A stretch of DNA of 64,000 bases from Escherichia coli (lineage in GTDB: Bacteria; Pseudomonadota; Gammaproteobacteria; Enterobacterales; Enterobacteriaceae): the NCBI RefSeq assembly GCF_003334765.1, contig NZ_QOWT01000004.1. The stretch is one strand, 5' to 3'. Positions 8,577 through 13,164 of the stretch are shown here, piece after piece. A program made the translations under genes and the position numbers. The notes under the pieces were generated by a model. That model was not told the origin of the DNA. It searched no databases and saw only the letters and a program-made list of their open reading frames with translations. Numbering within the stretch: the first letter of the stretch is position 1; every line of letters begins with the position of its first letter.

Positions 8577-9788
8577 TTATTTTTTCTCTGGCCACGCTAT
8601 GGAAGGGATACCATTCAATTTAGCTTTAGCAAACAGATCTCCCTGAAACATCTCAATTCCTGCGGATTCAAGCCACATCCACTCTTCTGGTGTTGCCACG
8701 CCCATAGCACTGACTTGAATTTCAAGTGATGTACAGCATTTTATGATCGCCTGAATAATTGCCTGCCGTGGCCCACTTTTATGAACATTGGTAATCAATT
8801 CCTGACTGATTTTAATTCTGTCAGGCTGGAAGCGTGACAGGAGTAACAAACCAGCAAAACCTGCGCCAAAATGATCAATTGCTACACTGATACCAGCAGC
8901 CTTTAGCGATTTAATCGCTTCGGCAAACTCATCAAACCGAGATATGACTTCACTTTCAGTAAATTCAACGATGATTTGTTCAGGCACCAGAGCATTGGCC
9001 TTTATTTCATTAAGTAAAAAAGAGACTGCGTCAGGTTCGTTAACCAGGGTCATAGGTAATAGATTGATTGAAATCATTTTATCACCGAGCTCAAGTGCGT
9101 GTGCCATCGTGAATGCAAGCGCCTTACTTTTGAGATCCGCTGTGTAGATTTCCCCGTCTTTACGCTGCCCAACCGCTATGGCTGATGGGCTATCTTCATT
9201 TTTTTGCACAATGGCTTCAAAAGCGATTATCCGCCGCGATAAGGGATCGACAATAGGATGAAAGGCAAAGTGGTCGTTTATAGTTGGTGAAAGGGCACAG
9301 GAATCAAGTTCTTTATCAGATCCGTCAGCGATAAAAAGCCAGGAGTCTTCGGCAGGGATCTCGAAATAGGTTGATTGTTCGGTTGCAAGGACAAAAGTAC
9401 GAAAAAATTGTAGCGCTCTGTCATCATAAGTTAGCTGAAATTTTGATGTGCCTTTGTCGAATACGGCCTGTAAAACGTCATCTCGCTCGTGCAGGCGCAA
9501 ATCAAATAATTCCATTCCCGCTTTGCCAAAACGGCGAGCAGGCGCGTAATCGCACAGCAGCTCAACAATATTATAGTGCCGTGGATCCTGGCATATAGCC
9601 CGATATATCATTTTAACCTGTTCTTCCGGACCTTCCAGAAGCTGGAAAAAATGAGAACCATTAAACAGTAAGATCCCTGTTACGTCAGACTGCATGTTCC
9701 TGCGATTTGCTATCGAAACCATTTCTTCGATTTTTTTGACAGGTTCGTCGTCACGTATATGGCTACGATAAATAAGGGTGGTAAGCAT
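8577..9788 (-). CDS. bluF: blue-light sensor BLUF-EAL protein BluF (YcgF)
   Basis: N-terminal BLUF-like region and C-terminal EAL-like domain whose signature reads EAI (AFEAIVQ) rather than EAL; start at MLTTLIYRSH gives 403 aa; the ORF extends to 9866. Confidence 0.9.
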   Translation of the reverse strand: MLTTLIYRSHIRDDEPVKKIEEMVSIANRRNMQSDVTGILLFNGSHFFQLLEGPEEQVKMIYRAICQDPRHYNIVELLCDYAPARRFGKAGMELFDLRLHERDDVLQAVFDKGTSKFQLTYDDRALQFFRTFVLATEQSTYFEIPAEDSWLFIADGSDKELDSCALSPTINDHFAFHPIVDPLSRRIIAFEAIVQKNEDSPSAIAVGQRKDGEIYTADLKSKALAFTMAHALELGDKMISINLLPMTLVNEPDAVSFLLNEIKANALVPEQIIVEFTESEVISRFDEFAEAIKSLKAAGISVAIDHFGAGFAGLLLLSRFQPDRIKISQELITNVHKSGPRQAIIQAIIKCCTSLEIQVSAMGVATPEEWMWLESAGIEMFQGDLFAKAKLNGIPSIAWPEKK

Positions 9789-10025
9789 TAACAATCCAGG
9801 GTAATGGGTGAGGCGAGAGTAAGACGGTAACAGACATATCTTCTTGTGTCTTTCTTTTAATACCAAAACATAACCGTTTCTTTACATTGATAAAAAATGG
9901 AAAAAGTTGAACACTAGTTGGCGAAAAATCTTGTATAGATTGTCAGTTAAATGATGCAATATGTTTTATCATAACACATTGTTTTATATGCATTAGCACT
10001 AATTGCAAAAAATTAATTTATCATT

Positions 10026-10047
10026 CTGTACACATATTTCGTACAAT
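10026..10047. promoter_or_regulatory. candidate BluR operator in the ycgZ promoter
   Basis: CTGTACAC-atatttc-GTACAA, 55-75 bp upstream of the ycgZ start; shares CTGTACAC with the bluR upstream region. Confidence 0.35.
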
Positions 10048-10101
10048 TTTGCTATTGTTACTTCACTTAACATTGATTAACATTTTTAACAGAGGCGTAG
10101 C

Positions 10102-10338
10102 ATGCATCAAAATTCAGTGACTTTAGATTCTGCGGGAGCAATCACTCGTTACTTTGCAAAAGCTAACTTGCATACTCAGCAGGAAACTCTCGGGGAAATT
10201 GTGACTGAGATTTTGAAAGATGGACGTAATCTGAGTCGAAAGTCGCTTTGTGCCAAACTTCTTTGCCGACTGGAACACGCGACTGGGGAAGAGGAACAGA
10301 AACATTATAATGCACTAATTGGGTTGCTTTTTGAATAA
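10102..10338 (+). CDS. ycgZ: small regulatory protein YcgZ
   Basis: 78-aa ORF; first gene of a four-gene small-protein cluster divergent from bluF. Confidence 0.85.
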   Translation: MHQNSVTLDSAGAITRYFAKANLHTQQETLGEIVTEILKDGRNLSRKSLCAKLLCRLEHATGEEEQKHYNALIGLLFE

Positions 10339-10380
10339 TGCAACAGCCTGATTATTTAACAGGTTAGCTATGAAGTCGTT

Positions 10381-10653
10381 ATGAAGACATCTGATAATGA
10401 ACGTATAAAATATGAAATTACTGGCCAGGCGGTGCTCCAGATACTGCGCATGAAGATAAATTTTTCATTGCAGACTCTTATTAAGCAATTACTCGTAATG
10501 AAATCGGCTGAGGAAGATGCTTTCCGACGCGATTTAATTGACAGCATAATTCGTGATTTTAGCAATAGTGATTCAGGAGGGCCAAACCGAAGAACAGCGA
10601 CAGCTGACAATAAAAGTATGTTCAATGGTAAGAAAATAAACAGAATACATTAA
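10381..10653 (+). CDS. ymgA: small regulatory protein YmgA
   Basis: 90-aa ORF, second gene of the cluster. Confidence 0.85.
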   Translation: MKTSDNERIKYEITGQAVLQILRMKINFSLQTLIKQLLVMKSAEEDAFRRDLIDSIIRDFSNSDSGGPNRRTATADNKSMFNGKKINRIH

Positions 10654-10948: not shown

Positions 10949-11060
10949 CTTCTAATTATTAAGTATAAGTTTATAGAAAACTCATTCATCTTATTTTTGT
11001 CTGTCGCTTTAGACTATACACAGCATAATTTTATTGGGTTAATATTTCTACGAGGCTGAC

Positions 11061-11309
11061 ATGAATAATTCAATCCCAGAGAGATTTATTTTTCAATGTG
11101 CTTTGTTTAAAAATCTCGAGAGGGAGGTGTTCATGACGCATGGGTATGTTGATAGTCATATTATTGATCAGGCTTTACGCTTGCGTTTAAAAGATGAAAC
11201 CAGTGTGATTCTTTCTGATCTCTATCTGCAAATATTGCAGTACATTGAAATGCATAAGACTACACTAACGGATATCATTATTAATGACAGGGAATCCGTG
11301 CTCTCTTAG
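11061..11309 (+). CDS. ymgC: small protein YmgC
   Basis: 82-aa ORF, fourth gene of the cluster. Confidence 0.8.
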   Translation: MNNSIPERFIFQCALFKNLEREVFMTHGYVDSHIIDQALRLRLKDETSVILSDLYLQILQYIEMHKTTLTDIIINDRESVLS

Positions 11310-11403
11310 AACTTGAGTAAGGTTTTAGAATAAACATCAGCTGTATCACCATGCTGATGCAAAGTGAGCATTTCAGGCGTTATGCTTTCTTATTATGTCC
11401 GCA

Positions 11404-11457
11404 ATATCAGGTGTCAAGAATGGAGAGTTCTCGCTCTCCATTCTTGACGCCTGATAT
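11404..11457. repeat. long near-perfect palindrome (24-nt arms, 6-nt loop)
   Basis: ATATCAGGTGTCAAGAATGGAGAG-ttctcg-CTCTCCATTCTTGACGCCTGATAT with one arm mismatch; a partial third copy (TCAGGCGTTA) at 11371-11385. Confidence 0.5.
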
Positions 11458-11640
11458 CCCGCCTAACTTATTTTGTACTGCCTACATTATGCTCAATAAT
11501 TAATGGGTTAGATCAAGATGGAGAAAATTTTATCTTCGGCGTGGATATTTCTTATGCTCTCTACCATGCTCTCTGTAGATGCCAGCGCGAGCGAATGAAT
11601 GGCATTTTCATGTATTAAACCCTTTGGCCGGGACAAGCAA

Positions 11641-13164
11641 ATGCGCAATACACTCATACCCATCCTCGTTGCGATATGCTTGTTTATTACCGGTGTCGCT
11701 ATTTTGAACATCCAGCTCTGGTATTCCGCAAAAGCAGAGTACCTGGCGGGAGCGAGATATGCCGCCAACAATATCAATCATATACTTGAAGAAGCGTCAC
11801 AAGCGACTCAAACAGCGGTTAACATTGCCGGGAAGGAATGCAACCTCGAGGAGCAATATCAGCTTGGCACTGAAGCAGCTCTGAAACCTCACCTGCGCAC
11901 AATCATCATTCTCAAACAGGGAATAGTCTGGTGTACATCCCTGCCTGGGAATCGGGTCCTGTTGTCTCGTATTCCTGTTTTCCCGGACAGTAATTTACTG
12001 TTGGCTCCAGCAATCGACACCGTTAATAGATTACCTATCCTGCTCTATCAGAACCAATTTGCAGATACGCGCATTTTGGTTACGATAAGCGATCAGCATA
12101 TTCGTGGGGCACTTAATGTACCCTTGAAAGGGGTAAGGTATGTATTACGCGTGGCGGATGACATTATTGGACCAACGGGTGATGTGATGACGCTTAATGG
12201 ACATTATCCCTATACCGAGAAGGTTCACTCCACAAAATATCATTTCACTATTATCTTTAACCCGCCGCCACTCTTTAGCTTCTACAGACTTATCGATAAA
12301 GGCTTTGGGATTTTAATATTTATTCTGTTAATCGCCTGCGCCGCTGCCTTCCTGCTTGATAGATATTTCAATAAAAGCGCAACGCCTGAAGAGATCCTGC
12401 GACGGGCAATAAATAATGGGGAGATCGTCCCTTTTTACCAACCTGTGGTAAATGGTCGGGAAGGGACATTGCGGGGAGTTGAGGTGTTAGCCCGCTGGAA
12501 ACAACCTCACGGTGGATATATATCACCCGCGGCATTTATTCCACTTGCTGAAAAATCCGGATTAATCGTTCCGCTTACGCAAAGCCTGATGAATCAGGTT
12601 GCCAGACAGATGAACGCTATCGCGAGTAAATTGCCGGAAGGTTTTCATATTGGAATTAATTTTAGCGCTTCGCATATTATTTCGCCGACGTTTGTCGACG
12701 AGTGTTTAAATTTCCGTGACAGTTTTACCCGCCGCGATTTAAACCTTGTTCTGGAAGTCACCGAGCGTGAGCCATTGAATGTTGATGAAAGTCTGGTTCA
12801 GCGGTTGAACATACTGCATGAAAATGGTTTTGTCATCGCACTGGATGATTTCGGTACTGGCTACTCAGGGCTTTCTTATCTTCATGACCTGCATATTGAT
12901 TATATCAAAATTGATCACAGTTTCGTTGGCCGCGTAAACGCAGACCCAGAATCAACCCGAATTCTGGATTGTGTATTGGATCTGGCGCGTAAACTTTCGA
13001 TCAGTATCGTCGCTGAAGGTGTCGAAACGAAAGAACAACTTGACTATCTGAACCAAAATAATATCACATTTCAGCAGGGTTATTATTTCTATAAACCTGT
13101 TACATACATCGACCTGGTCAAAATTATCCTTTCTAAACCGAAGGTGAAGGTTGTGGTTGAGTGA
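11641..13164 (+). CDS. pdeG: EAL-domain c-di-GMP phosphodiesterase-like membrane protein PdeG (YcgG)
   Basis: N-terminal TM segment and periplasmic region followed by a C-terminal EAL domain (signature EVLARW); start at MRNTLIP gives 507 aa; the ORF begins at 11599. Confidence 0.85.
   Translation: MRNTLIPILVAICLFITGVAILNIQLWYSAKAEYLAGARYAANNINHILEEASQATQTAVNIAGKECNLEEQYQLGTEAALKPHLRTIIILKQGIVWCTSLPGNRVLLSRIPVFPDSNLLLAPAIDTVNRLPILLYQNQFADTRILVTISDQHIRGALNVPLKGVRYVLRVADDIIGPTGDVMTLNGHYPYTEKVHSTKYHFTIIFNPPPLFSFYRLIDKGFGILIFILLIACAAAFLLDRYFNKSATPEEILRRAINNGEIVPFYQPVVNGREGTLRGVEVLARWKQPHGGYISPAAFIPLAEKSGLIVPLTQSLMNQVARQMNAIASKLPEGFHIGINFSASHIISPTFVDECLNFRDSFTRRDLNLVLEVTEREPLNVDESLVQRLNILHENGFVIALDDFGTGYSGLSYLHDLHIDYIKIDHSFVGRVNADPESTRILDCVLDLARKLSISIVAEGVETKEQLDYLNQNNITFQQGYYFYKPVTYIDLVKIILSKPKVKVVVE

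Follow-up and report, generated by a model that had tools for sequence, protein, structure and literature searches.

A degenerate and a complete EAL domain on either side of the ycgZ operon of Escherichia coli: BluF and PdeG

The window analysed here is a 64-kb stretch of the Escherichia coli chromosome, in which positions 8577–13164 run exactly from the stop codon of bluF to the stop codon of pdeG. These two genes for EAL-domain proteins flank the small genes ycgZ, ymgA, ariR and ymgC. Our reading, to which we assign a probability of about 0.93, is that bluF and pdeG are unrelated, characterised genes of the cyclic di-GMP (c-di-GMP) family on either side of the cluster, BluF being an anti-repressor and PdeG a separate phosphodiesterase (PDE). 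The EAL domain of BluF is no longer an enzyme; PdeG, as judged from its residues, is a membrane-anchored CSS-class c-di-GMP PDE with a complete catalytic site. The original prediction, made from the letters of the DNA, had considered BluF probably non-enzymatic, PdeG possibly active or degenerate, and the locus a self-contained signalling module whose c-di-GMP activity could not be decided from the EAL signature. Alignment against EAL enzymes reported to be active bore out a degenerate site in BluF and spoke against one in PdeG. Since all catalytic residues are intact in PdeG only, the claim of a non-enzymatic BluF stands, and on the sequence evidence the question can be regarded as closed, with a dead EAL domain in BluF and an intact active site in PdeG.

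The substance of this result is already known, as the inactivity of BluF and the activity of PdeG have been published for the near-identical K-12 sequences. BluF (YcgF) is a textbook case of an EAL enzyme turned into a protein-binding anti-repressor, and PdeG (YcgG) is a catalogued CSS-domain PDE. The 80-species comparison described below makes a modest addition: what marks the BluF lineage linked to the repressor BluR is presumably a shared loss of the ligands of metal site 2 (M2), not the EAI signature.

Catalytic residues of BluF and PdeG

Both bluF and pdeG are real genes, and chance open reading frames (ORFs) are excluded. Gene names are those that RefSeq gives to the identical stretch of E. 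coli strain FORC_081, mapped to window coordinates. The features of the two genes are:

8577–9788 (−): bluF (ycgF), 403 amino acids (aa), from annotation and Pfam; 100% identical to K-12 b1163
About 9513–9785 (−): BLUF domain of BluF, from Pfam
About 8625–9272 (−): degenerate EAL domain of BluF, from Pfam
9204–9224 (−): BluF motif AFEAIVQ (E191 kept, Leu to I193, Arg to Q195), from translation and alignment
11641–13164 (+): pdeG (ycgG), 507 aa, from annotation and Pfam
About 11731–12291 (+): CSS-type periplasmic domain of PdeG, from Pfam
About 12391–13098 (+): intact EAL domain of PdeG, from Pfam
12481–12498 (+): PdeG motif EVLARW (E281, L283, R285), from translation and alignment

The EAL domains were aligned with those of six PDEs described as active, namely BlrP1 from Klebsiella, PA3825 from Pseudomonas, and PdeL, PdeH, DosP and PdeC from K-12, with RflP (YdiV) as a degenerate control. 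The BlrP1 and PA3825 sequences were taken from PDB alignments. Thirteen catalytic, metal-binding and substrate-binding positions were scored, and a cross-check by pairwise HMMER alignments gave the same assignments. The BlrP1 numbers obtained from the alignment (E188, R192, N239, E272, D302, D303, K323, E359 and Q379) agree with what we take to be the literature numbering of that protein. The PA3825 numbers, when shifted by 3, agree with the ligands given in its structure paper, where metal site 1 (M1) consists of Glu39, Asn98, residue 130 and Asp160, and M2 of Asp161 and Asp183, which Glu217 joins in the complex with Ca2+ (PMC5301497).

Pfam recognised a BLUF domain (E = 5e-24, 91 of 92 model positions) and an EAL domain (E = 9e-49) in BluF. 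Residues Y7, Q49 and M92 of the BLUF domain are invariant between BluF and BlrP1, and are presumably the Tyr/Gln/Met triad of the flavin pocket that takes part in the photocycle of BLUF domains. The EAL motif reads as predicted (AFEAIVQKN in the translation of 9198–9224, minus strand). The M1 ligands E191, N242, E275 and D305 are kept according to the alignment, as are E278, K326 and Q382 among the other scored positions. M2, including the general base, is lost through replacement of its two Asp residues by H306 and S328 and of its Glu by M362. Two substrate contacts are lost as well, the phosphate-binding Arg of EALxR having become Q195 and the second Glu of EGVE A365, and the Leu of EAL is I193. 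Five of 12 catalytic or binding residues are thus missing, including the whole of M2, and it is because the M2 ligands are missing that BluF is not classed as an enzyme. K-12 BluF has been found to neither bind nor hydrolyse c-di-GMP, in light or in darkness, and restoring the consensus residues did not regain activity and weakened the antagonism of BluR (Tschowri 2012, PMC3509220). In the same study BluF antagonises the repressor BluR in a light-dependent manner, and the E. coli protein is described as the most degenerate variant of its family.

PdeG contains a CSS-motif domain (Pfam, E = 4e-31) and an EAL domain (E = 3e-66). Its two hydrophobic segments, TM1 at about residues 3–28 and TM2 at about 216–243, lie on either side of a loop whose cysteines C67 and C98 correspond in the alignment to C75 and C106 of PdeC, so that the order of TM1, periplasmic loop with two cysteines, TM2 and EAL domain is that of a PdeC-type CSS-domain PDE. 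All 13 scored positions are canonical. They comprise the M1 ligands E281, N340, E372 and D402, the M2 residues D403, D425 and E459 with the catalytic K423, the substrate contacts R285, E462 and Q479, and in addition L283 and E375; T374 and loop 6 (DDFGTGYSG) are also intact. The closest solved structure is the EAL domain of PA3825 (E = 1e-66, 46% identity); PA3825 is itself a CSS-EAL protein, and a kcat of 0.35 per s has been measured in vitro for its EAL domain (PMC5301497). PdeG is counted among five CSS-domain PDEs, together with PdeB, PdeC, PdeD and PdeN (2018, PMC5897775), and both full-length YcgG and the N-terminally deleted YcgG2 showed PDE activity in a rugose-to-smooth assay in V. 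cholerae (Zlatkov & Uhlin 2019, PMC6385356). YcgG variants also lower the rdar morphotype and CsgD in proportion to protein level (PMC10459773). Of the two options originally left for PdeG, degeneracy therefore falls away with the intact residues, and activity agrees with the PDE activity seen in vivo.

The three-letter signature is a poor guide to these assignments, because the highly active PdeH has the motif ELLTVV, which lacks the Arg, and an Ala at the Asp of KxD. The motif of PdeG does read EVLARW as predicted (GVEVLARW in the translation of 12475–12498, plus strand), and EVL-x-RW is common to PdeG, PA3825 (EVLMRW) and PdeL (EVLVRW), both of the latter active. The caution that the signature alone is not decisive was therefore well placed. 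An Arg-Trp pair after EAL, which had been called usual, is common and not universal among active enzymes, since BlrP1 reads EALIRS and PdeH ELLTVV. It is the full residue set that separates BluF and PdeG cleanly at the sequence level.

Between phylogroups A and B2, purifying selection acts on the two genes, as estimated from their sequences in a single pair, the window (A) and strain LF82 (B2), with small counts. The dN/dS values are:

bluF, whole gene: 0.18
bluF, BLUF part: 0.09
bluF, EAL part: 0.23
pdeG, EAL part: 0.12

The scored positions are untouched by the 15 substitutions in BluF and by the PdeG substitutions, which number 6 in LF82 and 8 in Ec-FL1-1X. BluF is maintained as a binder, and PdeG with an intact active site.

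We considered whether BluF might keep a cryptic nucleotide activity besides BluR binding, for instance on another cyclic dinucleotide held at the intact M1. Conservation of the four M1 ligands, K326 and Q382 is compatible with this, as are the dN/dS of 0.23 and the annotation of its best structural relatives other than BlrP1 as cyclic dinucleotide phosphodiesterases. We regard such an activity as extremely unlikely, given the published failure to detect binding or hydrolysis of c-di-GMP with or without light, even after the consensus residues were restored, and the loss of all M2 ligands, of the phosphate-binding Arg and of the Glu at 365; the purifying selection on the EAL part can be attributed to the BluR-binding function.

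Several points weigh against an active, redox-controlled PdeG. Our literature search found no assay of the purified protein, its activity resting on the intact residues and on overexpression phenotypes. Expression of PdeG in K-12 is reported to be very low, with no knockout phenotype there (PMC6385356), and deletion of pdeG in Shigella altered biofilm formation and invasion while global c-di-GMP was unchanged in either assay. The CSS motif of PdeG reads C-T-S, not C-S-S, and redox control has been demonstrated for PdeC and PdeB only (PMC5897775). The low expression, the Shigella result and the lack of in vitro kinetics in the literature, combined with the hub-like position of the RpoS-dependent PdeG in the two-hybrid interactome of GGDEF/EAL proteins (Sarenko et al. 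2017, PMC5635695), would suit a protein with no or negligible catalysis in the cell that serves mainly as a scaffold or sensor. We consider this most improbable in view of the 13 of 13 intact positions and loop 6, the 46% identity to an EAL domain with measured turnover, the conversion of rugose V. cholerae to smooth by YcgG and YcgG2, the lowering of rdar and CsgD, and the dN/dS of 0.12. For PdeG as a PDE, control through the CSS domain can be drawn from its relatives: in PdeC and PdeB, a DsbA/DsbB-dependent disulfide lowers the activity, and DegP and DegQ process the reduced form (PMC5897775). By analogy with these two proteins, the activity of PdeG would probably be held down by a periplasmic C67–C98 disulfide formed by DsbA/DsbB, and released upon reduction and proteolysis.

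The blue-light module and its neighbour pdeG

A 6-kb query around 8577–13164 found matches in 5095 of the 5426 complete E. coli genomes, with 100% identity in many, and the whole window is collinear over 64 kb with strain FORC_081 at 99.98%. From bluR to ymgF, 2 of 5874 bases deviate from the K-12 MG1655 sequence, and all proteins of this stretch are identical to those of K-12 except PdeG (Y474N). The genes run in the order bluR and bluF (both on the minus strand), followed by ycgZ, ymgA, ariR, ymgC, pdeG and ymgF (all on the plus strand), in agreement with the predicted flanking of the four small genes by bluF and pdeG. The remaining features of the locus are:

7641–8372 (−): bluR (ycgE), MerR-type repressor of the ycgZ operon and direct target of BluF; annotation, identical to K-12 b1162, function from PMC3509220
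10027–10045 (+): BluR operator in the ycgZ promoter; sequence match to the footprinted site of PMC3509220
10102–10338 (+): ycgZ, first gene of the BluR-repressed ycgZ-ymgA-ariR-ymgC operon; annotation, NCBIfam YcgZ_fam at 122 bits (cut-off 80)
10381–10653 (+): ymgA, small connector protein; annotation, K-12 identity
10682–10948 (+): ariR (ymgB), small regulator acting via the Rcs phosphorelay; annotation, function from PMC3509220
11061–11309 (+): ymgC, last gene of the operon; annotation
11404–11457 (+): stable hairpin in the ymgC–pdeG spacer; inverted-repeat search and folding
13296–13514 (+): ymgF; annotation

For each of BluF, PdeG and BluR, all curated equivalogs of NCBIfam stayed below their cut-offs. 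The best matches were paralogue models (RimA-type EAL, PRK10551 and MlrA, the last being that for bluR, below the curated cut-off), and NCBIfam thus offers no independent evidence for the three names.

The window contains the components of the known module, that is, a degenerate BLUF-EAL gene beside a MerR-type bluR and a divergently transcribed ycgZ-ymgA-ariR operon that carries a GTACA operator. TGTACA at 10027–10032 and GTACA at 10041–10045 overlap the −35 element and the spacer of the ycgZ promoter. The site at which BluR was footprinted consists of a GTACA...GTACA repeat and a TGTAC...GTACA palindrome that overlap each other and lie across the −35 element and the 18-bp spacer, and transcription of ycgZ starts 36 nt upstream of its ATG (PMC3509220). 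This start falls at about 10066 in the window, which places the operator motifs at the expected distance. A Northern blot showed ycgZ-ymgABC to be a single mRNA, and the conserved unit was given as bluR-bluF-ycgZ-ymgAB (PMC3509220). In the mechanism that the literature describes, and to which our analysis contributes the identity of the genes, the status of the residues and the pattern of linkage, light-activated BluF (favoured at low temperature) binds BluR and lifts it off the GTACA operator of the ycgZ promoter. This release switches on the four small proteins, which in turn affect biofilm functions by way of the Rcs phosphorelay.

Conservation of the module was assessed in a sample of one genome per species (GTDB representatives), from which the best 80 loci with relatives of BluF and BlrP1 were taken with 10-kb flanks. 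The 80 contain no Escherichia locus, the best match being from Citrobacter (75%). Flanking genes were sought by tblastn with the window proteins, and the 13 key positions were scored in each homologue. A BluR homologue adjoins the BluF homologue in 64 of the 80 loci, together with homologues of YcgZ and AriR, and every one of these 64 BluR-linked proteins is degenerate. The same three M2 ligands are replaced in 59 of them (D303H, D325N/S and E359V in BlrP1 numbering). Fully intact homologues are confined to loci without BluR (9 of 80; Fisher p = 5e-8, uncorrected for phylogeny). Loss of all three M2 ligands is presumably the shared founding lesion of the BluR-linked lineage, to which E. coli BluF has added three further changes (L190I, R192Q and E362A, again in BlrP1 numbering). 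The EAI signature without the Arg occurs among the 80 homologues in partial variants only, at two loci (L071 and L062). On a larger sample, the comparison reproduces what Tschowri et al. had concluded.

Two side observations concern the same homologues. The 59 with the common M2 lesion lose only the M2 ligands and keep R192, E362 and Q379, and from these residues they might bind c-di-GMP without cleaving it, as an intermediate, sensor-like stage. The BluR-less homologues of Mixta, Erwinia and Winslowiella (L049, L066, L073, L084 and L088) are degenerate each in its own way.

The claim of a self-contained module is only partly right, since the conserved unit is bluR-bluF-ycgZ-ymgAB and the claim finds no support for pdeG: the stretch originally proposed leaves out bluR, the key partner of BluF, and takes in a neighbour. 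The actual module is bluR-bluF-ycgZ-ymgAB(C), and pdeG is not demonstrably part of it. By tblastn, none of the 80 other-species loci has a PdeG-like CSS-EAL gene within 10 kb of the bluF homologue; the only matches to PdeG are the EAL domain of the BluF homologue itself and one unrelated EAL gene (L030). The gene ycgG has been called an E. coli-specific add-on of unknown function (PMC3509220). As a separate observation, Citrobacter braakii (L012:7905–8725) has a 183-aa ORF after its ymgC homologue, sharing one base at the stop/start junction; the C-terminus of this ORF resembles a LuxR/FixJ-type helix-turn-helix by sequence, and pdeG occupies the corresponding place in E. coli. Homologues of ymgC, at 36–56%, were found by tblastn in 10 of the 80 loci, unlike the published absence of this gene from other enteric bacteria (PMC3509220). 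A tandem duplication as the origin of the two EAL genes was rejected: the BluF and PdeG EAL domains share only 20% identity, which speaks against local duplication, and are respectively 43% identical to BlrP1 and 46% to PA3825.

The 331-nt spacer between ymgC and pdeG holds a hairpin (11404–11457) with 24-nt arms that are 96% complementary and a 6-nt loop (−44.5 kcal/mol, z = −10.2). It is unannotated, occurs in a single copy per E. coli genome and is weaker in LF82 (−28 kcal/mol, z = −3.1). The hairpin may be the 3' end of the ycgZ-ymgABC mRNA, as a terminator or stabiliser, which fits the published single transcript (PMC3509220). A dispersed repeat of the REP type was rejected in view of the single copy, the two places at which it first appeared being the two strands of a palindrome. 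An unannotated 50-aa ORF at 11351–11503 spans the hairpin and is probably spurious. Rfam gave no RNA family match within 8577–13164. A consensus scan of 7500–13700 returned 16 promoter matches against 17.2 expected from shuffles and 3 terminator matches against 5.2, and cannot define transcription units. A weak point of our reading is that transcription of pdeG apart from the operon is inferred from this hairpin, which no U-tract directly follows, and from the published Northern blot.

A functional place for pdeG in the blue-light module, through read-through from the ycgZ promoter or contact of its EAL domain with BluR or BluF, would let light and c-di-GMP or redox signals be integrated locally. 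In at least 4871 of 5426 E. coli genomes pdeG has stayed next to the operon on the same strand, both depend on RpoS, and PdeG is a promiscuous two-hybrid hub. Furthermore, MlrA, a paralogue of BluR, binds an EAL domain, that of PdeR (PMC3509220), and no canonical intrinsic terminator turned up in the simple scan of the region between ymgC and pdeG. Set against these are the 0 of 80 other species and the LuxR-type gene that follows ymgC in Citrobacter, the single ycgZ-ymgABC mRNA and the −44.5 kcal/mol hairpin, the treatment of ycgG in the literature as an add-on, and about 1100 E. coli genomes that have lost the 5' half of pdeG and its upstream region with the Blu module intact. We therefore hold membership of pdeG to be very unlikely. 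The more specific proposal that PdeG is wired into the blue-light/Rcs pathway, by partial read-through past the 11404–11457 hairpin or by an EAL–BluR contact like that of PdeR with MlrA, draws on adjacency, shared RpoS control and hub behaviour only, and appears highly improbable; if it were true, the locus would integrate light, periplasmic redox state and c-di-GMP.

Alleles of pdeG and other features of the window

Codon 474 of pdeG (13060–13062) is AAT (Asn) in the window and TAT (Tyr) in K-12 MG1655. Both LF82 and Ec-FL1-1X carry Asn, so that the K-12 Tyr474 is probably the derived state; Y474N has also been reported for strains Fec10 and Fec101 (PMC10459773). An inactivating change specific to the window was rejected, since the allele is present in both divergent strains checked and the position is non-catalytic. 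About 1100 of the 5041 pdeG-bearing genomes match only bases 631–1524 of the gene, the 5' 630 bases being deleted, while the Blu module is intact. This ycgG2 allele (locus L090:4001–4894; matches H34–H39) lacks TM1 and the CSS domain and is listed as a pseudogene by RefSeq in LF82; in published work, ycgG2 is translated and active (PMC6385356). In some strains IS2, IS1 or IS903B has inserted into pdeG or close to it (H1–H4, H11).

Elsewhere in the window, the mapped FORC_081 annotation places dsbB at about 26813–27343 (−) and ycgR, annotated as a flagellar brake protein, at about 38106–38840 (−). YcgR is a c-di-GMP effector. DsbB drives formation of the control disulfide of CSS-domain PDEs (PMC5897775). 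The presence of the two genes in one window with pdeG is probably a coincidence. Just downstream of ymgF, the ycgH autotransporter pseudogene begins at 13914 (+); RefSeq describes it as frameshifted with an internal stop, and a 506-aa ORF at 13914–15434 is its first intact piece. The only Rfam matches above the gathering score in the window are the C0299 sRNA at 24942–25020 (+, 111.9 bits) and the rdlD antitoxin RNA at 63636–63701 (+, 91.4 bits), the latter adjoining an Ldr-family type I toxin gene. Upstream of the locus, icd is followed directly by iraM (about 3516–5940); the e14 prophage of K-12 MG1655 is absent. Identity to K-12 is only 98.8% in the icd region, against 99.97% in the rest of the compared stretch.

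Comparison with known systems

The closest counterpart of the light-sensing part of the locus is the K-12 BluF/BluR/ycgZ-ymgABC system. The genes bluR, bluF, ycgZ, ymgA, ariR and ymgC are identical to it in protein and DNA, and the gene order and GTACA motifs are the same. No difference lies within the module itself; MG1655 has the e14 prophage a few kb upstream at icd, which the window lacks.

BlrP1 of Klebsiella pneumoniae (PDB 3GFX) has a BLUF-EAL architecture and length like those of BluF, with 41% full-length identity (E = 4e-97). It is a blue-light-activated PDE with every catalytic residue, whereas BluF has I193, Q195, H306, S328, M362 and A365 in their place. BluF works by binding a repressor, while BlrP1 is an enzyme. 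In its mode of action BluF resembles RflP (YdiV), whose EAL fold is likewise no longer catalytic and which antagonises a transcription factor, being annotated as an anti-FlhDC factor. The catalytic positions of RflP are largely substituted (G142, N143, M163 and G199), however, which makes it far more degenerate than BluF; it lacks a sensor domain and shares only 16.5% identity with the EAL domain of BluF.

PdeG of the window is, in 506 of 507 residues, K-12 PdeG (YcgG, b1168), with the same TM-CSS-TM-EAL layout and N474 in place of Y474. PA3825 from Pseudomonas aeruginosa (PDB 4Y9O and others) has the same EVL-x-RW motif and metal ligands as PdeG, in a comparison that covers the EAL domain only, the solved PA3825 chains consisting of the EAL domain alone.

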